A stretch of DNA of 63,439 nucleotides, counting the filler, from Vezdaea acicularis (lineage: Eukaryota), in the NCBI GenBank assembly GCA_026025075.1. It is 4 parts of 4 records of this genome, joined end to end, with 100 filler letters (N's around TTAATTAATTAA, not from the genome) between each part and the next. Parts side by side here need not be neighbours in the genome. Positions count along the whole stretch, not along the records: positions 1 to 18,173 come from JAPEUI010000206.1; 3 more parts are not named here. One strand, 5' to 3'. Below, piece by piece: positions 1-13,088 of the stretch; positions within the stretch are counted from its first letter, which is position 1, and every line of letters starts with the position of its first letter. Made by a program: the position numbers and the translations under genes. The notes under the pieces were generated by a model. That model was not told the origin of the DNA and searched no databases. It worked only from the letters and a program-made list of their open reading frames with translations.

Positions 1-125
1 CCCTAACCCTAACCCTAACCCTAACCCTAACCCTAACCCTAACCCTAACCCTAACCCTAACCCTAACCCTAACCCTAACCCTAACCCTAACCCTAACCCT
101 AACCCTAACCCTAACCCTAACCCTA
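1..125. repeat. Telomeric repeat (CCCTAA)20 plus a partial unit; chromosome left end
   Basis: Perfect CCCTAA hexamers from base 1, C-rich strand 5', as expected for a left chromosome end. Confidence 0.99.
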
Positions 126-376
126 GAGTCGGTTTCGGGAGTCCGGCACCGGCACACGCCACAACGCGGCTCCAGGCAAGCCCTGAGCATAGGGCTTGTT
201 GGAATAGAGCTAGAAGAGGCATATGCACAGAGCACAAAGTATATTACAAGATATTAAACTTATTGCATTTGGTCATATTGTGATGATATCTTTGAAACTT
301 AATCATTCATAGAAGATAAGCTAACTGACGCCAAACACTTCAATTCACATGAAATAATAACCGTCAACTCATATCA

Positions 377-859
377 TCACCACTCATTTGCTACCATCAT
401 AGCCAAAGCCGGAGATAAATATCTCAACAACTCATCTTGTTGTTCTTGAAAGAATTGACTATATGCTCCATATGCTTGCACCGCCCTTTGCAATTCTCTT
501 CTCCATCTTGCTTTTGTAGCTCGGTCCGGACAACTATTCTCCTCCATTTCATCCTCCAATTGTATGAGCAACACATCTTCAATGTTTTTTTGACGTAGCC
601 GCTTGACAAGCAAGTGTATTGTACGATGTAAATGATGTAAGATGATCTGTGGAGGCATCTTTCTCCAGAACTCTGCCGTGATTGGAGGAGGAACTGAATT
701 CATTAGTATGTAAACCGATAATTGAAAGATATGCATACATTCATAGCCGGCAATAATGTCAGATAACTCCATGTCAAATGAGCCAAGTTGCATTCTAAAG
801 AGATATTAGACTGATTTATGCAGAGCTAGGTCATTTTGCACATACGTCAATTGATCCAT
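377..859 (-). CDS. Small hypothetical protein (~143 aa), 2 exons (859-846, 794-377)
   Basis: ATG GAT CAA TTG AC|GTATGT...TCTAAT...TTTAG|A ATG CAA; the 51-nt intron 795-845 joins in frame to the 138-aa ORF. Confidence 0.65.
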
Positions 860-1167
860 ATGATAGACGGAAAAGATTTATTGAGCAATAGCTTTTATGT
901 CACAATCCTAAAGGTCAGACGTGATAAATCATACGGCAAAAGGATAAAAAGGTTTTTAAAAAGCAGAGAGAAAGATTTGATCTTATATATTCAACTCCTG
1001 ATCACGTGCTGTAGATATGATTTCACGTGATATATGAAAAACTTTCTATTTAATTCCATCACATTTTACGACCAAAACTCTCTTTTAGCTAAAACTTATG
1101 CCTAAGAATATGCGTTAATTCAAATCTATGTTTATATCTACATCTATGTCTTGGTCTATGTCTATGT

Positions 1168-4100
1168 TTATGAAGCATTCTTGCCCTTATACTCCCGGGT
1201 AATCTTACACAAAGCATGCTCAAAGTCAATATTGGAAAATGGACGGCCACAGAAGTTTATCCACTTTTCGTCTCCCAGAACCTTGAATTCCTCCCTCATC
1301 TTATCCAAACCGGTGACCCATTCAGATCTGGAAACATATGGAATAGACACGTTCTGTTCCTTGGTGATGATGTTGAAAGCAACAGTTGAACCAAGCCCTT
1401 CTGTCATCTCGTTACCCCGATCTGATGCTTGACGCTTGATCTTCTCAGCCAGATCAGCTGTTGTTGGGTTTTGACAAAGTCCGTACTCAACCAGATCACA
1501 GATAGTTAACCAAGTGACCATACCATTCAGAGGAAGATTGCGGATCTTGAAATCAGCAATCCAATTCTTGATAGTGCTGAAAGAAGGTTGTTTTTGCTTG
1601 GAGACCCGTAGACTTTTCATCAACTCAGGGATTGAATTCCAGATATGCGTGAATGCTTCCAACTGCTGCTCTTCATTCTTGTATCGGAACTGACCATATG
1701 CCATCACATTGCTCTTGCATTTCTTGTTCCTTAATCTCTTGTCATTTGTCATAGCCTTCCAATCTTCCAGATTCTTCATCTGTGCAATCTTTTTCATTCG
1801 GGACTCTTTGCCAAAGCCATAGAGACGCCAAAGAAAGATACGCCAGTAGAAGGTCTTTTGTTCTTCTTGGGAAAGACTCAAAATGTCTTGGTCAAATGGA
1901 TATACCGTCTGAATGAAGCTCATACTTGGTGCTCGACGTCGGAAGATGATGTACTTATCTCCCGGAGCCCATACACAAGCTGCCTTCTGCATATATAATG
2001 CCAGATGAGGATCATTATATTGGTCCATGATGTGATGTTGACTCTTGCAGTCGGCCCAACGCTTGTAGATATGATCGCGTTCATTCTGAATCTCAAGAAT
2101 CTTCTCCCCCACAATAATACTATGGTAAAGATATCCAATCACTGAACGTTCAAAGTCATTCAGATAATTACCATCAATCAGATCCATGTCTGGCATGAAA
2201 TCAAGAATGAGCCGTATCCGTTCTGTAGATGTTTTGCTGGTTCTGGTCTTGCGTTTAAGTAGACCAGAAATAGCAGGTTTGGCTCGGATAGAAGGTAACT
2301 GATTGACTGATGGTTGATATTCATGGCTGGGAAGATCTCGTTGTCCACGGCTGGAGAGTTTTTGATAAACAAAAGTATATCTCCCATAAGCTTTGACGTG
2401 TTCTTGAATAGACGAAGAAAGAGAACGGAACTCAGGACTGGATAAGGCGGCAATGAAATCCTCAATAGATTCTCTGTTTACTCTATCGGCTTGATTGGAG
2501 AGGAACGCAAATTGAAGCATTTCTGGGATCATATTGAAGCTCCAGGTTGAGAATGAATTGGTGGAATGACAGAAATGTTGTTGCAAAGCCATGAGAAGTG
2601 GAAGACGGGAGACGATGATAAGCTTAGAGCGATTTCTGGTTGCTAGTAGTCGATCCCGATAGATGTTAGTATTAGATCAATAACAACCTAAGTTTTCCAG
2701 AAATCTTTCAACAGGTTTGGAGAAACACATGCCATAGATGACGTTTTCAAGGATAATACCCTTGTTGTAAGATGTGTTTGAAGGAGTTAATCGTCCAGGT
2801 CTAGGTTCCAAGGAAACATCCAGATGTGCTCGAGGGTTATAGGCATTGCCTAGTACCTCTTTTGCAGACACCTCCAAGTTGCTATGAGGATACGTTTTGG
2901 ATTGAGTTTCTTCTTCCCATACCCTAAACTTATCATCAATGACGGTCTGTAATTGCATGGCAAATGAAGCATGCGGAAGAAGAGTTTCTGGATCTTCCCA
3001 AATATTGAGGAACGGATTCTTCATGGCCCCAATGAATTCAATCAGTAAGGTGAGGAAAGCTGATTGAAATCCCAATTTGACAATTTCAGCGGCGTCCGCT
3101 TTTTCTTGAAAGAGATAGAAAGCTTCTGTGTATGCTTGACAAGCCCTGATGCGTTCCACAGGAGTCATATCATCCATTTTCTCTAGAACAGGAACTGACT
3201 CCAGTGATCTAAATCCTTTCTGTAGATTAAGATCAAAAGCAGGACGAGTTTTGATCTCCGCTGTCTTGAGATCAAGTTGATCTTGTTTGAAGCATTCTTG
3301 AAAACAATGAAATAGGGAGTTCAAAGATCCGGTATTGCCTGTTTGATGAACATTAACTGTATCAATGCTGGCAGCGGCAGTAGAATGCACTGGAGAAGCA
3401 AGACGTTCCATGGTGTTGACATTAGAGGACCCAATGGAGATTATATTAGCCAAAGATGAAACTTGATCTTGAAGAAGTTGTGATGAGGATGCTCGTTGAT
3501 GAGTTTGATGTCGTTTACGAGACGGTTGTTCTGTTTCTGATTCTGTTTCATCTTCTGTAGTTTCTGCGGATTGATCTGCAGAGGAACCAGAAGATGAATC
3601 TGAACTCAGAGTTAAGATCTCCTGACGTACAACCTTAGATTGCTTGGAAGAATGCTTCATATCATAAAAAGGTCTCTGTAATGACGATTTAACAGTGTTC
3701 CGAATGTTGATCATACGATCTAGCAATCTTTGCCGGTTCTGCTTGATGGTTTGAAAGTTGTCTTCAGAAAGGAGAAGGGTATTTGGATCTTTGTCTTTCC
3801 ATGTGATAGCACTCAAAAGAGCATTCCGATCCAGTGATAAACCCAGATGTTTGAGACCATAAACCTCATCGCTATATTCATGAATAAGCGTGGCCAAAGT
3901 TCTTTGTCGCCAAGCATTATATGCTTGAATACCCCCAAAACATGAGGAAGCGTGCATCCAGAGACTTCGATTAGGGTTCTCATCAAGCTTCTTACCCATG
4001 AAGTTTATTTTCAGACTACCATCCATTATAACCGCTTTTGGATATGTGATAATGTTGATCCGGGTCTCTTGTTCATAGCCATAGGGAATCTCCGAGATGT

Positions 4101-4260
4101 CCTGATTATCGACACAAAACGGTGTTCCAGTATGCTCTTCTATGCCTTGAAAGACAATGCCATAACCCACAGTCATCCGGATAATGAGATCAAGATTAGG
4201 AAACCAGAACCAGCCAAGATTAGCTGATGGACGAACAGCCGAGCAATTGACATACAAATG
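1168..4260 (-). pseudogene. Disrupted fusion: C-terminal half of a TET/JBP-like 2OG-Fe(II) dioxygenase, a linker, and an aGPT-pyrophosphorylase / amino acid:DNA transferase-like (HhH glycosylase fold) domain
   Basis: ORFs 2677-4314 and 1168-2592 share a frame, with one TGA (2677-2679) between them. Dioxygenase-like motifs: GWFWFPNL, IVFQGIEEHTGTP, TRINIITYP. Transferase-like motifs: GMVTWLTICDLVEYGLCQNPT and DFEHALCKITR. The N-terminal HxD is absent. Confidence 0.6.
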
Positions 4261-4276
4261 TCTGCTTGAGCGCAAT

Positions 4277-4640
4277 TGTAAAACGCCGCAGTGGCTTTCT
4301 CGGTGGCCTGCCAACAGGGCTAGAGTGAGCTAAGCGAGATGAGCGCTGCTTAGGGCCTAGCCCAAGAGCAGCGTTGATCAAGCCTCTTTACTTATATATG
4401 CCAATGGCGCCCCTCCGATGGCTCATCATCGAATAGTTTCATACCCTAGCTAGATCGTACGAGACTTCCTTATATCTATATGACCTCATTATTCTTATAT
4501 CGCTCCATATAATGGGGCAAATATCATTATATCCAAAGTCTATCATTATATCTAGCTCCCGTAGCCCGCGTACACATCGCTAAGCGTATACCTCCTTGCC
4601 GCAGGCAGGACACAGACGTCATACGCCTGCCCTGCTCTCA
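4277..4640. other. Non-coding island of different sequence character that replaces the expected 5' half of the dioxygenase-like gene (possible LTR remnant)
   Basis: Starts TGTAA where recognisable dioxygenase-like sequence stops and ends where the minisatellite begins; no target-site duplication found. Confidence 0.25.
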
Positions 4641-4650
4641 AGAAAGAATC

Positions 4651-5667
4651 CCAGAGAATCATCAGATTGAGAATCGATAAATCCGTAATCGATGACGCAA
4701 AACTGATGCCACAAGACCAGGAGGATCGAAATTGGCAGATTCATCATGGATGACTTGGAATCTATTTCAAAAGGCCAAGAGGGTAAAAATTGACAAGTCA
4801 AAACCAATGCCGGAAGATCCAGAGGGTCAAAACTGGCTGATCAAGACTTGATGTCAAGAGTTGTTGTCTCAAGATTGTTTCCAGAGGATCATCAGATTGA
4901 GAATTAACAAATCCGTGATCGATGACAGGAAACTGATGCCACAAGATCAGGAGGGCCGAAATTGGCAGATTCATGATGGATGACTTGGAATCTATTTTAA
5001 AAGGCCAAGAGGGTAAAAATCGACAAGTCAAAATCAATGCCGGAAGATCAAAAGGGTCGAAACTGGCAGATCCAGAGTTGATGTCAAGAGTTGATGTCTC
5101 GAGATCGATTCCAGAGGATCATCAGATGCCACAAGATCAGGAGGGCCAAAATTGGCAGATTCATGATGGACAACTCGGAATCTATTTCAAAAAGCCAAGA
5201 GGGTAAAAATCGACAAGTCAAAACCAATGCCAGAAGATCAAGAGGGTCGAAACTGGCAGATCAAGAGTTGATGTCTCGAGATCAATTCCAGAGGATCATC
5301 AGATTGAGAATCGACAAATCCATGATGTCTCGAGATCGATTCCAGAGGATCATTAGATTGAGAATTGACAAATCCGTGATCGATGAAGCAAAACTGATGC
5401 CAGAAGACCAGGAGGGCCGGAATTAGCAGATTCATCATGGATAACTTGGAATCAATTTCAAAAGGCCAAGAGGGTAAAAATCGACAAGTCAAAACCAATG
5501 CCGGAAGATCAACAGGGTCGAAACTGACAGATCAAAAGTTGATGTCAAGAGTTGATGTCTCAAGATCGATTCTAGAAGATCATCAGATTGAAAATTGACA
5601 AATCCGTGATCGATGACGCAAAACTGATGCCAGAAGACTAAGAAGGCCAAAATTGGCAGATTCATGA
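4651..5667. repeat. Subtelomeric minisatellite, ~230-bp unit, ~4.5 imperfect copies with internal deletions and duplications
   Basis: The CCAGAGGATCATCAGAT-type start recurs at 4651, 4881, 5111, 5288, 5343 and ~5572; AAAATCGACAAGTCAAAACCAATGCC is repeated. Confidence 0.92.
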
Positions 5668-5759
5668 ACCAATGTTTGGAAACCGCTGCCAGAACATTAA
5701 ATCTATCAAAATTGACAAATTAAAATCCATTCCACAATGATGACCACCCAAAACATCGA

Positions 5760-8700
5760 TCAGTTTTCTCTGGTTCTTTCCAGTTGATTTTTGAATTCCA
5801 AAGCTAGATTTAGCTTGGTGTCTATGCCATATCGCATTGGATTTTTGATTAATCCAGAGTCTTTAGAATGAATGTCACCTTCAGTCAAAAGAAAAAGCTG
5901 ATCTGCTCTCGTCAGTTGTTCATGAATCTCTTGCCAATGTAGATTTGATCCAGTACTAAGATGGCTCTCCTGCTGGACTGATTGCTTCAAAGCTTCAAAT
6001 ATTCCAAAATACAGTGGATTCAGCTGCGGGATAATCCAGTTAGTCCGAGACAATGTTTCCATCTCTTGCAGCATTTCAAAAGTCTTGGACGCATTGTGCT
6101 TTGAAGCTCTTCGTATGACAGAGAGCTTGTCAATATTGTATTGCGGTATGATCCATATCTTTCGGCAAGCATGAAGATTGATCACTTTATCAAAGCTTCT
6201 TGATGTTTTTGGTCCTAGCACATCTTTGACAATATGCCGAAGCCGGCGTTTCCATTCTCGAAATGGGCTGTATTCCCATCCACGTTTTTTGACTGCGCCA
6301 GGCATGTTATCATCTAAACCAAACAGTCCAGCAATGCGGCCAATCCAGGTACCAGTATTGTATTGATCCAAAAGGCTCACATCACGACGGGCGGCTTTTT
6401 TAACTAGGATCAGATACGGCGGCATCTCTAGAAGCTTTGTTAAAAGATCATAGCTGAATCCTTCTAGGCCTTTAGACTGTATTGCATCAAAGCGTTCTTG
6501 GACTATATCTATCCTTGGATCCAGTTCCTTGGAACGTTGACGCAGAATATTAAGGATCTCCAGTTGATAGGATTGAATGATCAGTTCAGCTCCTAGTTGA
6601 AATACCCGTTTGCGCGCATGAGGATCTAAGCTCTCTTTAGGAAAAGCCAGTGACCGCTGCAACCATTCGCGAAAAAGCGCCAACTCTCGATGTTCTTGCT
6701 GAAGAAGATTTTGAATCCTCAAGGTTTGGTTTCTTTGTCTACCAAATCCATTGATTGCTAGTCCTAGTCGAGAAATGATGTCTGGCTTGAACATTGGAAG
6801 ACCTTCCCATAGGATTAAATCTGATGGCAACCAAGCTAAACCAGTCTGTTCTAAACTCTTGCGATAATCTAGCCCTAGACGTGTTGAAACTTCATTTGAT
6901 TCTTCATCGTCATCTAATTCATTTTCATTTTCTTCCAAAAGTGATTTGACTTTCCAATCATGCCACCATATAGATCTTTGCAGCGACTTTTCTAATTGCC
7001 CCAAGTTGGAATGCAATGTTCTGATGATAGCGCTGACCATCACACCATTGATCATCTGTTGCTCTGCAGATGCAGGAGAAAGTCCAACGGGCCCTGGATT
7101 AACTTGACAGATCAATGCTTCTAGACACATCAACCATCAATTGATGTCATATCCAATATATGTATTGACATCTTTGGTTCGGAAGACAAAATAGGGCCGG
7201 TGTTGATGTGGATCATTGCTTGCTGCATCATTTAAAGCAGCATCCAACTGTAGGCGGGAAAAACGTTCAAGAGTCATTCGATATTCTTGCCGTACACCAA
7301 AGCAGGTATCAATGATAGAACATATCGCTTGATTTACCCGTTGTTTAGCATGTTGATATATCTTTAGCAGATGCTGGCGTTTATCTAGATGGGAGGTTTG
7401 CCCTCCCCGATAGCTCAATTCATACCAGCGGTTGAGCAGATCTTGATCATATGCTAATCCTTCCAGCTGCTGATGATCAAATAGAACTAATCCTTTTAAT
7501 GGAGTAGCAAAAAGATCTTTATGAAGGCTATAAGCTTTGTTAAAAGCGATTCCGCCTTTGGCATGCCATTTGTTGGTTGGCAATATTTCAGCACAAGTTG
7601 ACATAATATCGCGAGTTAATGCCCAAGGAAACTCTTGAGTGCGAAGAAGTGATGATCTTTGATCCACAGCTTGAAATTGAATATTCCAGCTAGCACAACA
7701 TTTGGATTTTTGCAAAAGAGTTACTGCTTCATTCTGAAATAGTTCTGGAGTGTCTTCCAGTCCTAAATCTATCCAACATTTTTGTGCAGGCATATACCGT
7801 TCATTGGCATGAAAACATTGTCGGAGATGACGGAAATAATCCTGTCAAACCTGTTGAGGATCAAGCTTCTTGGTAAAGAGCTTTAGATTGTGCCCTTGCA
7901 CAATTAAAAACACCCCTCGAAAAATGGCGAATCTAGGGCTGTTGCATTTCTGCAAGACAAGATTCCAAAAACAATCCAAATACTCCTCAGGAATGCAATA
8001 TCGAAGATCTATTGGCGGTTGCACACCGGTAGGATGCCATTCTTGTTTGGCGGTTGATTTGATTTTAACTTCTGCAAAACTTCGAGGATGATGTTGCAAA
8101 ATATCATTTGGACAACTTTTGCGCAAGGACGGAATGATAATGTTGTCAATCCATTCCTCCTGTTGTATATCTGTCAAATGAGTTCCATCCCGATGAAGAA
8201 CAGGCATATGAGGAAAGAAAACATGGCACTGATAATTGAATCCGGCAGAGGCAAGTCCATGACCTAATCTTTGGTTTTTTAACTGATGCAGGCGTTTTCT
8301 TTGAAATCTAACATAAGGATTTTGCGTCACACGTCGCAAGTATGGAGGCCGATAGGCTAGATCAAATCCATTCCGATGTACGCCTAAACTGGTAACCTCT
8401 GCTATCAAGCTGTCCACATCCCAACGTCGAGATATTTGAAGAGAAGATTCTTGAATGGGGATACCAGACTCTATTTCCGAACAGGAAACATTTAGACTTG
8501 GAGGATTTCCATCTTCCCCCGCTAACAATGCTTTCCAAGCAATGTTCCGATAGTCTCCGTGTCTTCCATCTCTTGGTAACAGATTTTCATAATTTATCGG
8601 AAAGGTATTGGAGTGACTGGGACTGTCTCTTCTTGGCATATGCCTACTCCAATATTGACACATTTCCTTAAATCCCAAGCCTGATTTGTCTGATAAGTTT

Positions 8701-9398
8701 GTTCCTGCATTGCAAGAACAAGTGGTGCTCCAGGATTTTTGCAGTCATTCATCAATCTCATGATCCAATCCTAAAGCATCGTCTGAATTTGTTTCACTCA
8801 ATGTCAAAGATTGAGTGTCTGCAATATCATCGTCTCTTTCCAAGACATCAGTTGCTACACTGGAAGAGATATTTGAGCTGTCCAAAAGCTCTAAAGATTG
8901 TCTGAAGGCATCCAGCTCAAGTCCGGCCTCATCAGCAACATCTAATTGGCCTTGAACAGTTGATGGTTCCTGATTTGATGCAAATGATAGATTGAGAAGT
9001 TCATTGGATTCTGAATTAAGTCCATCTAAAGTAGTTGAATGATAATCTAGTAGAATATTTAAGTTAATATCGGATTCTTCATGTGCTTCTGCCGGCAAAA
9101 GAGGATGATCTGTTTCTGGATTAGACTTAACATCAAGTTGGGCATCAGCAAAAAGATTGACAAGTCCATCGAAAGGCTCATTCTGTTCGCTTGCAGCATG
9201 CAAAACTGGTGAGGAAATTGATGGAGCCAAAACAGCTGGAATAGATGATGACGTGGATTCTGGTAAGACGCTCAGTGATGTTGATGAATAGGACTGATTC
9301 AAGGATCTAAGTTGATAACGGTTTTGCCGTGCTTGTTGAGCCTGCAGCTTTTCTGCTGGAGTCTTTGCTTTTCGCCCCATGATTTTGATGGGAGGCAT
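5760..9398 (-). pseudogene. ~1,210-codon uncharacterised fungal protein interrupted by three in-frame TGA codons
   Basis: ORFs 8745-9401, 7845-8678, 7137-7793 and 5760-7133 share one frame. Hand translation of the gaps shows only TGA at 8745-8747, 7845-7847 and 7137-7139. Conserved-looking motifs: WDVDS, HVFFPHM, WIDLGLE, KAYSLHK, FGVRQEYR. Confidence 0.75.
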
Positions 9399-9492
9399 CA
9401 AACGCTATGGCGGATGCGTTGATATTTATTAAAATGGTAGGAAGGCCACCTATGGCTTGTAGTGGCGTGTCTATAATGACCAATCATAAGTA

Positions 9493-9797
9493 GAATAAAC
9501 CGTCAAGCGTGATATGAAAACTTCCTATTCCATTTTTATTAGGTCCGGTTTAATGGAACTAACCAATTGCTGATTGATTCAGCTTAAGCGAGATTAACAC
9601 AAGCAATTTTCATACATGCGCGATTTTTTTTTATCCAATGATTCAATGACACGGCAGGATATTAGAAGTTGTATGGTCGCTACCATAGATAGAGCACACT
9701 AAAAATTGAAGTGTAACCAATCAGATGAGGAATAAACCGTCAAGCGCCGTTTGTCCTTGACGCCAAGCGAAACGAAAGCGCGCTTGACGGTTTATTC
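9493..9797. repeat. GAATAAACCGTCAAGCG motif: direct copies at 9493 and 9730, inverted copy at 9780-9797 (18-bp perfect inverted repeat, 32-bp spacer)
   Basis: 9730-9747 GAATAAACCGTCAAGCGC is the exact reverse complement of 9780-9797 GCGCTTGACGGTTTATTC. Confidence 0.9.
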
Positions 9798-10522
9798 ATT
9801 GCTTAATAGGCTGCGTTGCATTAGAGGCGCATACTAATGCTCGCTTATGCCCAAATAACCAATTAGCATCTATGCCATCCCTCCACTACAACCACGCCAT
9901 CCCGGTACGCAACCATCTTCTAGGCCGTCTGGCTGCTGGAAGAAATTTCCATAATCCTAATCGTGTCACATCATCAATATTTAACGCCAACGTGGGCACT
10001 GACGCAGTCACCAATGCCTGAACTACGCGCAAATGAACTTTTTCAAGCGTTTAGGCTCAACTTTTGATCTTATTGCCAGTTCTATGCAGCAAGTCGCTCC
10101 TCGCCTTCTTTATTACGTAAATATTCGTCGAATTATGCGTCTTATAAGCAAATGTTTTCGTCTTGCCCTGACTCTTAACCCTACGCAGCGAACAGGTTTT
10201 CTCAAAGATGCGTTATTTTACACGCCCAGTCTCACGCTCACACTGGTGCTTATCTGCTGATGTGATTCATGTTCTCACAATGCACTTCAAGGGTAGACTT
10301 CGGTCTACTATTTGGGAGAAAAGAGGTGATCTCGAGGGTTAGGTTTAAGGTTTTCAATGAGTCAAAGTTCATCGTATAATGACGTTTCTCTAGTTGAATA
10401 ATCATCTAAAGGGTTTAAATTTTAACTTCCCCACTACAAAATCATGTTTTCATGTTTAGCACAAGGGCCATGATACGTATGATTATTATTCTTCCTCTGC
10501 ATACCGCATATGTTAGACCCTA

Positions 10523-13088
10523 TTAGACCATAAGGTTATATTTTCTCAGTGTATCTTGTGCTGTAGTGACCTTCAAACCAATTCTGTTCACTAGATTAGC
10601 GAAATAAACTTCATATGGCCTAGGAAATACATATACCGAGCGTCCAAATCATAACTTTCCCATCTTGCAGCTTTATCAAGCCATTCTGCACATTCCTTAC
10701 CCTTATCCGGCTGTTCTCGTTTGAGCCAACATACAACAGCCATTTCATAGTGTGCTGAAGGGCATGTCCAATCATCTCTCAAGTGGCCCTTGAAAAGATT
10801 GCGATCGTGAATCAAAACTTCGTGTTTTAATATGTCTTGCGATTTCTCGACTTCTCCAAGATGCCTAAATATGACGGCTCGCAGAACTGAGTGGATGGCA
10901 CGTTCATCTAATGCTTCACTTTTCCATGTGGGGTTCGCACTTTCGTTTAGTGACCATGATAGTTGGTCTAGTGTAGCGTTGAGGTGCGTAGAATTCATAC
11001 GTTTGAAGCCATTCCAGAAATATATCATCTCCGCAAGAGGCGATACTCCAATAGCATCGACAAATGGAATGCCCCAATCGGAAGACCGGTGCTGCCATTT
11101 CTGGATCTTACGGCTGACGAATACATCAAAGGGTAAAGGACGAGCCATGAAACGCTTCTTACCCGTCAAACTCGGAACCATTTGTAAGTTTTCATTTGCT
11201 TTTGCCGCGTGCTCTTTCTGTAAACAAAGTTAACCTTGCAGGTAAACAGGTATGGCGTTAGACATACCGCTCTAGTCGGCTCAATTATCTTATATTGCCG
11301 ATAGAGTTCAACGTGAGCCGCTCCCGCGATATAGTAATAGAGAGCGTGAGACCAGTTGTTCAGAGCAACGCACTATTGAGAGAAATCGTTAGTTATCGAG
11401 GAACAGGCATGAACTGAGACGGACGAGTGAACCTTGATGAAGCTTTCCGCGCACAACGAGTATTTATGGCAATACATCGAGTCGAGAGCCTTCTCGAACA
11501 TAGCCAAAGCTTCCACTTGCTTCAAGGGGCTTGACATGTCTTCATCAAGCATCTCTATGGCGTGTTCAAGTTTTTTATCTGCTGCTTCCATCCTGGCCTC
11601 CTCGAGCATCCATAGATGGCTCTTAGGGTATCTGCGCCGCATGTCTGAGAGCAGTTCTTGGCACATCTTAACTGGATAACCATCAAGATAACCACTGTCA
11701 CTGTCTGGCAGGATGTCGCAAGTCCCTATCAGGTTATTATAGAATCCAAGAAGTATAAGCCCTGCCAAAGCGCCGTTAATGTTGTGAAATTTGCTAGATT
11801 GCCATAGCATCTGGAGCCCTCTCTCTCGATCTCCCTTGAAACCAATAATGTACAGAAGTTTTCCAAAAGCCGGTGGAATCATCGATATCATCAACAGTAG
11901 TACTCCGAAGCAAAGGTTTGCCCCTGAATGGATAAACACATCAATTGGATTAGAGAAGAATTCGGAGTCAGGGTCGTGGTCAACAACTGGGCGGTTTCTA
12001 CTAGCGTGGCTCTCCGTTATCTCTAGTGTGAAGGCCGCAAAGTTCTCATGAACTTCTTCCTCATCAATTTGCCCTGTATAAGTCGTTAAGGTAGAGGTAG
12101 TATGGACGTCCTCTACAGCATCAACGAACACATCGCTGTCATCCTCTACGCCACCTTCGTGACGAACATATGCCTCGTCTGGGGACAGTGCATTCCTAAG
12201 TTTAGAATGTTGTAAATGCTGGGTCTCATTGTGGAAGCTTCCGGGCATTGTACTCCGATCGGCTTCAATCGAACTTCTGGCCGACATGGAGTCTGTCTTT
12301 CCTCTCATGTATTTAACCTCAGCTTCAAGGATACCGTCAAGTGACATGTACGCTTTCCTGAGCTTGTAGAAGCCTTTAATGCTCTCTGTGAGTGATTCGT
12401 TTAAGAGACCGACGATAGCGCCCATCAGTTGGGCTTCGGCATTGCATAGTGCATATTCCGATCCAGGGGGATATATTGAAGAATGAAACGAAGTTGCTTC
12501 ATGTTGAGCGCGCCGGAGATCAGCAGAAGCTGTAGCTTCTGCATCTCCGAGAAACTCCGAAGCTATTGGCTATCAGACAAGGAACAAATCAAATTGATAG
12601 GAAATAGTGATGGTATTGCCTTCTCGCATGGTTTCTTGCTCAAATCCTAAAGTTGCCCTCATGAACGTAACGACGCCCTTTCCGAGCTTGACTAGCTTAT
12701 CAGCATATTCGTTCGGGTTTTTCATCATCATCATTTTAGGAACGTTGAAGCTTCCCTGCCCTTGCCGTGTGAGGAAAGCATCACTCACTTTGTGAAATGC
12801 AGAGTTGCCGCGTTTAAGACCTGCTTCAGCGGCGTCGACGTCGTCATTCATAATCTGTGTCGCAGCTTTACGGAGACATCGTTAGATGTGTCTGTTGCCC
12901 CTTTCACAGTATCTCCTGGCTTAAACCTACCCCGCATCGCATCCTCTACTGCAAATGCTAGTCAGCCTCTTGGTTCATTTTACTCAGAGTGAGGTTATCT
13001 GACAATTCTGTGGTTCATCGAGAGAATTCAATGAAAGCGTCGAAGCATTCGAATGCTTCTTAGCCGTTAACCAGGATCCAACACGCAT
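10523..13088 (-). CDS. IML2: Iml2/TTC39-family TPR protein, multi-exon
   Basis: [63 protein letters not shown], last exon [12 protein letters not shown]; canonical introns. Confidence 0.88.

Follow-up and report, generated by a model that had tools for sequence, protein, structure and literature searches.

A probable subtelomeric pseudogene of a fungal fusion between a TET/JBP-like dioxygenase and an aGPT-Pplase-superfamily domain in Vezdaea acicularis

A broken fusion gene next to the telomere

The DNA analysed here, called the window, was a stretch of 63,439 nucleotides from Vezdaea acicularis (GCA_026025075.1) joined from parts of four records. Its minus strand carried the remains of a large gene (1168..4251) close to a telomere. 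This locus was most probably a subtelomeric, 5'-truncated and stop-interrupted pseudogene of a family of large fungal proteins (about 1,220-1,350 amino acids, aa), in which a TET/JBP-like dioxygenase is fused to a domain of the aGPT-Pplase superfamily. An earlier note on this DNA had proposed the locus as a candidate enzyme. This was not borne out: the HxD motif was missing, the gene met a repeat at about 4251/4252 and an in-frame TGA interrupted it. The window copy is to be annotated as a pseudogene and not as an enzyme, and it is the intact relatives that could reveal how DNA marks are modified or erased in fungi. The features of the locus, with two open reading frames (ORFs), were as follows.

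1..125, unstranded: telomere repeat (CCCTAA)x20.8, TTAGGG on the other strand (Tandem Repeats Finder, 100% matches)
1168..4251, minus: body of the fusion gene, homologous to residues ~204-1262 of the protein P0003, with a single internal TGA (tblastn and alignment A4)
4314..2677, minus: ORF A, 545 aa, stop included
2592..1168, minus: ORF B, 474 aa, in the same frame as ORF A
2679-2677, minus: in-frame TGA, aligned with Gln in three homologues and His in a fourth
2687..2643, minus: candidate intron of 45 nt, GTTGTT...ACTAAC...TAG, in frame (from the sequence)
3616..4251, minus: remnant of a TET/JBP-like 2-oxoglutarate (2OG)/Fe(II) dioxygenase domain without HxD, the N-domain (N-domain hidden Markov model (HMM), hhalign, alignments A1 and A3)
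2206..3615, minus: middle region, opening with a low-complexity linker rich in Ser and acidic residues and continuing in conserved helical blocks (alignment A4)
1171..2205, minus: all-alpha domain resembling aGPT-Pplase, AADT and HMUDK_hel, with a fold like helix-hairpin-helix (HhH) glycosylases, the C-domain (AlphaFold2, structure search, hhalign)
4252..4635, unstranded: flank standing where the 5' part of the gene would be, part of a repeat that is multi-copy in related metagenome assemblies (depth and contig breaks)

The window begins at a chromosome end, because positions 1-125 hold 20.8 copies of CCCTAA, and the relic lies about 1 kb from the telomere. Minus-strand translation of 4314..1168 gave 1,048 codons with one internal stop (...ENLGCY*SNTNIYRDRLLATRNRS...). 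A single stop over this length at 41% G+C is far beyond chance. The subtelomeric position and the reading of the two ORFs as one frame with a single TGA, both claimed by the earlier note, were thereby confirmed. Its coordinates for FQGIEEHTGTP and TRINIITYP matched an independent count on the sequence (4152-4120 and 4065-4039). GWFWF, GMVTWLTICDLVEYG and DFEHALCKITR were all found in the read-through frame, the last near 1227-1195, with the Glu codon of DFEHALCK at 1221-1219 and the Cys codon at 1209-1207.

A HMMER search with the read-through protein against 1.84 billion representative sequences matched 67 proteins at E<=0.001. P0003 (1,264 aa) was the best match, with 41% identity and E 3e-246, and P0072 (1,352 aa) was its cluster mate. 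The remaining matches split into two groups, covering query residues ~4-230 or ~720-1045. With tblastn, residues 512-1262 of P0003 aligned to 3429-1177 at 40% identity (E 0) and residues 189-414 to 4293-3616 at 42% identity (E 4e-58). The extension of this second alignment from 4251 to 4293 was weak and probably spurious.

Truncation and decay of the window copy

Residues 1-188 of P0003 had no counterpart anywhere in the 63-kb window (tblastn, E<=10), and the N-domain HMM matched one window ORF alone, over HMM positions 149-344. HxD was missing from this copy; the aligned triplet was H-C-G in a poorly similar stretch. With the loss of HxD, the window dioxygenase is unable to bind iron, and its part of the gene had no ATG-initiated start. 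Contigs of four public sequencing runs were aligned to window 1100-4700, where the related copies in those runs were 85-99% identical to the window. Depth in one run, X1, rose from 6.5 to 119-229 at 4246-4608, a jump of about 18-fold at the junction of gene and flank. Related metagenome contigs broke at 4251/4252 and were unlike the window sequence beyond this point, with more loose ends at 4277 and 4329. These data are read here as a multi-copy repeat that joins the gene at 4251/4252 and has taken the place of the 5' third of the dioxygenase domain, HxD included.

The TGA position was a sense codon (Gln or His) in P0001, P0005, P0006 and P0072, and the alignment continued residue for residue. 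The earlier note had offered a short intron as an in-frame bypass of this stop. The elements of such an intron were present (GTTGTT at 2687, ACTAAC and AG at 2643, in frame), but a bypass is unlikely because the homologues fill the TGA position residue for residue. Splicing of 2687..2643 would delete a conserved segment of the homologues (YRDR, YVNR or FRDR). GTTGTT is a poor fungal splice donor. An intact gene, with the 45-nt intron removing the TGA and upstream exons supplying an N-terminus with HxD, was judged highly improbable. It would explain the GT...ACTAAC...AG pattern and its length of a multiple of three. Against it stand the four homologues aligned across all 15 codons of the candidate intron, including the conserved Y-R/V/M-D/N-R, the protein records of relatives with 1,224-1,352 aa, the lack of N-terminal homology anywhere in the 63 kb and the multi-copy repeat from 4252 onwards.

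A rather unlikely alternative is a half-dead locus, where ORF B (2592..1168) continues to yield a C-domain protein on its own. Every invariant C-domain residue was kept in ORF B. Among the listed differences between the related copies and the window (best 40 of 327 differences), 17 of 29 fell at third codon positions and 16 were synonymous. Both observations speak against complete death of the gene, and the third-position bias suggests past constraint. P0073, an entry of 454 aa in NCBI nr, was identical to ORF B from the 21st residue of ORF B, and stand-alone C-domain genes of 290-459 aa were common, making up 42 of 88 collected proteins and all nine metagenome loci described below. On the other side, the start of ORF B falls inside the conserved middle region and not at a natural domain start, one related copy had a nonsense change at 1828, inside ORF B, and an annotated ORF such as P0073 is no proof of a product. 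At most, a C-terminal ORF of 454-474 aa could still be made from this locus.

A pseudogene remained the preferred reading, and several copies of the fusion gene appear, from their sequences, to be decaying. The differences in run X1 were mostly transitions (C>T 51, G>A 49, A>G 41 and T>C 36, vs 26 transversions). P0007, a protein of 69 aa with 75% identity to window residues 47-115, showed E>K and G>D/S in the FQGIEEH motif.

The N-terminal domain

Profile-profile and language-model evidence supported the N-domain as TET/JBP-like at the family level, as the earlier note had proposed, with HxD absent from the window copy. The window kept the distal His H61 (FQGIEEH, codon 4134-4132) and Arg R85 (ETRINII, codon 4062-4060). 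Among the rows of alignment A3 (27 rows) with a residue at the respective column, H189 was present in 16/18, D191 in 13/18 and the distal H242 in 24/26. The 2OG-binding Arg was counted in 10 of the 14 rows of alignment A1. A profile of 18 IMG/VR relatives of Mycobacterium phage Cooper gp2 served as TET reference. Cooper gp2 matched Pfam Tet_JBP with E 4e-8 and 28.2 bits, below the cut-off of 34.9. Comparison of the fungal N-domain with the Cooper gp2 family in hhalign gave Prob 70-73% and P 3-4e-5, with HxD, distal His and Arg in register. A control with AlkB (34 non-redundant bacterial sequences) gave P 0.33, about four orders of magnitude worse than the TET/JBP match. In an ESM Atlas feature search with P0015, a homologue comprising the N-domain only, 22 of 30 matches were Tet_JBP clusters with scores of 0.95-0.96, and the same search with P0006 gave no usable match. 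A profile search with the N-domain alignment returned 11 matches, none carrying a Pfam domain.

It is improbable that the N-domain belongs to the generic 2OG/Fe(II) oxygenases, with a protein or small molecule as substrate, rather than to the TET/JBP enzymes of nucleic acids. The lack of a Pfam Tet_JBP match would fit this, as would the score of the TET reference itself (28.2 vs 34.9 bits), whereas the P-values for TET/JBP and AlkB, the Tet_JBP clusters in ESM Atlas and the fusion to a DNA-base-handling domain in five clusters argue against it.

The C-terminal domain

The C-domain was supported as a member of the aGPT-Pplase superfamily with a predicted HhH-glycosylase-like fold. The AlphaFold2 model of the 345 C-terminal residues of the window, computed with 29 sequences, was all-helical with 15 helices, a predicted local distance difference test (pLDDT) of 87.2 and a predicted template modelling score (pTM) of 0.88. 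The invariant residues of the domain were all intact in the window: W..CDL with its Asp, GLG...A and DFEHALCK. The model was compared exhaustively with 48,161 PDB chains using VIA-align. The best chain was 8z2m_A, PaMx11 gp46/PUGT, an amino acid:DNA transferase (AADT), with Z 10.6 and a root-mean-square deviation of 4.0 over 227 aligned residues, a score to be read with the caveat that helical models can reach Z ~13 by chance. It was followed by QNG1/DUF2419 with Z 7.9 and then by at least ten HhH DNA glycosylases with Z 4.1-7.2, among them AGOG, Ogg, AlkA, NTHL1, Mag1, MagIII, ROS1, EndoIII and MutY. 8z2m_A led the next chain by ~2.7 Z and the best DNA glycosylase by 3.4 Z. In a Foldseek search of BFVD, 15 of the top 22 rows had a probability of at least 0.5, and all ten named ones were AADT, 5-hydroxymethyldeoxyuridine (5-hmdU) DNA kinase (helical domain) or Pplase1. 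The top AADT/HMUDK_hel matches had probabilities of 0.85-0.99 and template modelling (TM) scores of 0.35-0.44. Terpene synthases, which led the Foldseek search of PDB with E 0.1-0.4 and TM ~0.2, were rejected as generic helical matches.

Reference profiles were built from IMG/VR relatives of the AADT of phage M6 (PF18724, E 2.3e-48) and of the helical domain of the M6 kinase (PF18723, E 1.4e-57). Their comparison in hhalign gave the following results.

Fungal family vs HMUDK_hel: Prob 75%, P 2.5e-5, 203 columns
Fungal family vs AADT: Prob 22%, P 9.6e-4, 125 columns
AADT vs HMUDK_hel (the two known clades): Prob 21%, P 1e-3, 120 columns
Unrelated controls: Prob ~0.1%, P 0.5-0.78

Judged by its profile, the C-domain is nearer to the kinase-associated clade 1 (HMUDK_hel) than to the transferase clade 2 (AADT). 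Weak matches to PF18723 (5-hmdU DNA kinase, helical domain; formerly aGPT-Pplase1) came from 5 of the 29 family members, the strongest with E 0.0035 and 17.2 bits against a cut-off of 25, while the window domain itself did not match. No other Pfam family was matched by more than one of the 29 members, PF18724 (ADDT) was matched by none, and PHROGs showed no family common to more than one of them. A PDB sequence-profile search with both domains yielded chance-level rows alone (E 0.28-2.5). The motifs D[LFIM]EH.LCK of the fungal family, RDIEHTLCEF of HMUDK_hel and QEVETVLCKW of AADT were in register, and E[HT]x[LIVM]C was found in 39 of 47 family C-domains, with DFEHALCK in the window. Neither the Glu nor the Cys of this motif is dispensable in the AADTs M6 gp51 and ViI gp247 (PMC8989533), and Glu243 and Cys247 line the base pocket and active site of PUGT in 8Z2M/8Z2N (PMC11472151). 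The suggestion of the earlier note that the C-terminus has an AADT-type HhH fold with an ExxLC motif was backed by the confident model, the structure searches and the profile comparison.

The ranking of the structures and profiles also bears on a different function. Instead of an AADT-type transferase, the C-domain could be a DNA glycosylase/lyase for excision of the oxidised base, in a demethylation module of TET plus base excision repair, or a base-flipping DNA-binding module for targeting, which may also be its part in phage 5-hmdU DNA kinases. This is possible but on balance somewhat unlikely. Its sequence is nearest to the kinase-attached clade 1 (P 2.5e-5, vs 9.6e-4 for clade 2), HhH glycosylases follow 8z2m in the structure ranking, a GxGPxxA-like hairpin is conserved and there is no kinase to make a leaving group. 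Opposed to this are the catalytic Glu-x-x-Leu-Cys pair of AADT, kept in 39/47 members, and a transferase as the nearest solved structure, 3.4 Z above the best DNA glycosylase. An HhH-glycosylase catalytic Asp/Lys pair was not identified, and no search was aimed at one.

Domain architecture and distribution of the family

HMMs of both domains, built here, were run over 88 collected proteins. Fifteen of these carried both domains. At 50% identity they formed five clusters, namely the P0003 and P0005 groups, P0006, P0022 and P0045. P0006 (KAI9839104.1), from a metagenome-assembled genome (MAG) of Sclerophora amabilis, comprised 1,224 aa with both domains. P0015 and P0023, which held the N-domain only, originated from MAGs of S. 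amabilis and Phylliscum demangeonii, respectively, and both of these named hosts belong to the Pezizomycotina. The fusion is not a gene-model artefact, because the window carries both domains in one genomic frame, with no interruption besides the single TGA. Intact members are single polypeptides, putatively from intronless genes, with an N-terminal TET/JBP-like 2OG/Fe(II) dioxygenase that has HxD, the distal His and the Arg, a conserved helical middle and a C-terminal aGPT-Pplase-superfamily domain. The middle region matched no known Pfam family; the blocks LNIW.DP.T.LPH, VIYG.CF..PV.RF, MIPE.L.FAF and RG.R.LP were common to all fusion proteins. At family level, both domain matches and the co-occurrence of the two domains in one polypeptide, here in five other clusters, were found, the three points on which the earlier note had staked its reading. 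It had also seen no kinase, and this held: a Walker A motif was absent from the five fusion proteins examined, and no kinase family was among the Pfam matches of the 25 window ORFs scanned.

In a quick tree of 47 C-domains, all five fusion rows fell into one group of nine rows (Shimodaira-Hasegawa-like approximate likelihood-ratio test, SH-aLRT, 94), the other four rows being of unknown or partial architecture. The tree search was a quick one, and it flagged long branches. A single origin of the fusion was neither shown nor excluded by this tree. P0002 (502 aa) started just past the position of the window TGA (MAMTRYRDRAF... vs SNTNIYRDRLL..., window 2676-1168). This protein may be cut short by the end of its contig, or it may represent a naturally shorter version of the C-terminal half.

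A scan of JGI metagenomes yielded nine loci, all of them stand-alone C-domain ORFs of 290-459 aa, one being split in pieces. No N-domain was present in the DNA around these loci, which extended at most 10 kb to either side and less on shorter contigs. Their neighbours were ordinary fungal genes, encoding HET, DCP1, inositol 5-phosphatase, ABC transporters and sterol methyltransferase. Two loci (L184:15315-15929 and L183:3038-4003) had further neighbours: in one, the C-domain gene lay 4.4 kb from an ORF of the SAD/SRA family, which reads 5-methylcytosine (5mC) and 5-hydroxymethylcytosine (5hmC), and in the other 5.6 kb from an OTT_1508-like deaminase ORF. In three loci the C-domain gene had HET-domain genes as direct neighbours. 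The proximity of SAD/SRA, deaminase and HET genes may be coincidental. With these genes, the aGPT-Pplase fold is represented in fungi by a sizeable stand-alone family.

Several results weigh against this picture of the family, in addition to the structural caveat given above. No Pfam model reached its threshold for either domain in the window ORFs, P0001-P0003 and 45 further matches, and PF12851 (Tet_JBP) was unmatched by 14 N-domain members and P0001-P0003 at E<=10 and by the window ORFs at E<=1. The profile P-values were pairwise and moderate (Prob 70-75%), and the TET reference was shallow, comprising 18 near-identical phage sequences. For the C-domain, BFVD E-values were weak (0.07-0.6), and a Foldseek search of PDB with the model gave none below E 0.1, with 8z2m not among the top 50. 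Single-domain members prevailed among the 88 proteins, with 28 N-only and 42 C-only, many of them fragments. Together with the nine metagenome loci, all of them stand-alone, this gives the C-domain a role independent of the dioxygenase. The phage chemistry is not transferable as it stands, because there is no kinase.

Comparison with known systems and proposed mechanism

To our knowledge, TET/JBP oxidases and AADT-type transferases work together in phages alone, where separate genes encode them and a kinase acts in between. The nearest known system is this phage pathway of T-dioxygenase, kinase and AADT. In phage thymidine hypermodification, a T-dioxygenase (5mYOX/TET-JBP) or a deoxyuridine monophosphate (dUMP) hydroxymethylase is followed by a 5-hmdU DNA kinase and then by an AADT; the kinase consists of a P-loop domain and HMUDK_hel (PF18723), and AADT/aGPT-Pplase2 corresponds to PF18724 (PMC8989533, PMC13229309). 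The phage T-dioxygenase clade is described as consistently linked to P-loop kinases and AADTs (PMC13229309). The fungal family shares with this pathway a TET/JBP-like oxidase and an aGPT-Pplase-superfamily domain with the Glu/Cys pair of ExxLC. It differs in its fungal host and in the fusion of the parts in one polypeptide of 1,220-1,350 aa, where phages have neighbouring genes. It also has no P-loop kinase, pyridoxal phosphate (PLP) or radical S-adenosylmethionine (SAM) partner, both domains lie below Pfam thresholds, and these fungi are not known to contain a modified base.

PaMx11 gp46/PUGT, a 5-PmdU glycinyltransferase, was the best structural match and has ETxLC around its active-site Glu/Cys, compared with EHxLC in the fungal domain. 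An Asp-containing helix is likewise shared (FKxADM in PUGT, WLxxCDL in fungi). Sequence identity was only 8%, however, and the fungal domain is longer (~330 vs 287 aa), scores better against the kinase-attached clade 1 and cannot be supplied with a substrate-activating phosphate. HhH DNA glycosylases and QNG1/DUF2419 have the same all-alpha, two-lobed fold (Z 4.1-7.9). Similarity to HhH glycosylases was lower than to the AADT structure, the motif was of the AADT/HMUDK type, D.EH.LCK, and glycosylase catalytic residues were not identified.

For intact members we infer a substrate, two chemical steps and a biological role along the following lines. The dioxygenase would hydroxylate the 5-methyl group of a DNA pyrimidine (5mC or T). 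The C-domain would flip the resulting 5-hydroxymethylpyrimidine into its pocket, where the conserved Cys would add to C6 and the conserved Glu would act as acid, as in AADT chemistry without the phosphate leaving group installed by a kinase. The hydroxymethyl group would then be derivatised or removed. Thiol-enzyme activation of 5hmC without phosphorylation is known from C5-methyltransferase work. Without a phosphate, the reaction could conceivably proceed by acid-assisted substitution, or the hydroxymethyl group could be lost or the base excised; a purely targeting role, as suggested by the kinase-attached clade 1, is a further option. That intact members such as P0072 and the S. amabilis protein are self-contained, kinase-independent two-step editors of DNA bases, which attach a nucleophile or expel the hydroxymethyl group as formaldehyde, is a speculative and quite unlikely proposal. 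Under it, the TET/JBP-like domain would produce 5hmC or 5-hydroxymethyluracil (5hmU), on which the C-domain would act by the Cys and Glu chemistry outlined above. If true, nucleophile attachment would give the first hypermodified pyrimidine in fungal DNA, and formaldehyde expulsion would be direct DNA demethylation without base excision. The kinase-less fungal fusion makes it testable whether some fungi hypermodify pyrimidines or demethylate them directly.

Iyer et al. may already have mentioned fungal aGPT-Pplase/TET links in 2013 and 2014. No earlier description of such a fungal fusion was found in the literature searched, with Iyer et al. 2013/2014 and the supplements of PMC12730594 outside that search. 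Transposon-borne fungal TET/JBP dioxygenases comprise the types PU, AG (CcTET-like) and PE; the PE type is marked by HxE, escapes ordinary sequence searches and is found in Pezizomycotina (Kojima 2025, PMC12730594). The family described here resembles these types in being fungal, lineage-expanded and TET/JBP-like, and resembles PE in being missed by ordinary sequence searches. Unlike PE, it has HxD. It further differs in its C-terminal aGPT-Pplase-like fusion, which the main text of PMC12730594 does not mention, and in its named hosts, which are Coniocybomycetes and Lichinomycetes and not Pezizomycetes. No transposase or terminal inverted repeat was found at the locus. The catalogue of fungal TET/JBP-like enzymes thus gains an HxD-bearing, Pfam-invisible group in these two classes of Pezizomycotina. 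In P0023 (866 aa, P. demangeonii MAG), a fragment of the helicase family AAA_12 (E 9.4e-9) preceded the N-domain, reminiscent of the Helitron-borne TET/JBP genes reported for Pezizomycetes.

Subtelomeric surroundings and composition

Beyond the relic, the subtelomeric part of the window held two further features.

4636..5665, unstranded: tandem array with a period of ~230 bp, 4.5 copies and 68% matches (Tandem Repeats Finder)
5760..9404, minus: second large broken gene of ~1,214 codons with 3 internal stops, its start near MPPIKIMGRKAKTPAEK (one frame)

The second pseudogene (5760-9404) matched no Pfam family and had no similarity to any collected protein or metagenome locus. Between the telomere repeats and the relic, an ORF of 138 aa was present at 377-793 on the minus strand and matched no Pfam family. 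In moss-metagenome assemblies, 4246-4700 was ~10-35x deeper than the adjoining gene, as part of a multi-copy element. Other fungal TET/JBP genes are carried by transposons such as KDZ, Helitron and IS3EU. No transposase Pfam family was detected in 1-10.6 kb, and no convincing terminal or long inverted repeats surrounded the 10-kb block. Set against these negative results for a transposon, the relic abuts a multi-copy repeat and lies beside a pseudogene of 1,214 codons without a recognisable family.

Repeat-induced point mutation (RIP) was ruled out as the cause of the stops and the low G+C. By the general thresholds for RIP indices, the dinucleotide ratios in 1-10 kb (TpA/ApT 0.39-0.72, (CpA+TpG)/(ApC+GpT) 1.46-2.03) were opposite to the RIP signature. 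Ordinary fungal genes were found from ~10.6 kb on, encoding Iml2, PGK, ERG4/24, a mitochondrial carrier, VTC and Pil1. The G+C content of the subtelomeric block (first ~10 kb) was 0.41, compared with 0.50 elsewhere in the window. G+C at third codon positions was 0.33-0.45 in the two subtelomeric pseudogenes (0.33 in the gene at 5760-9404) and 0.48-0.80 in seven housekeeping exons. The subtelomeric block (1-10600) was compositionally distinct from the housekeeping genes.

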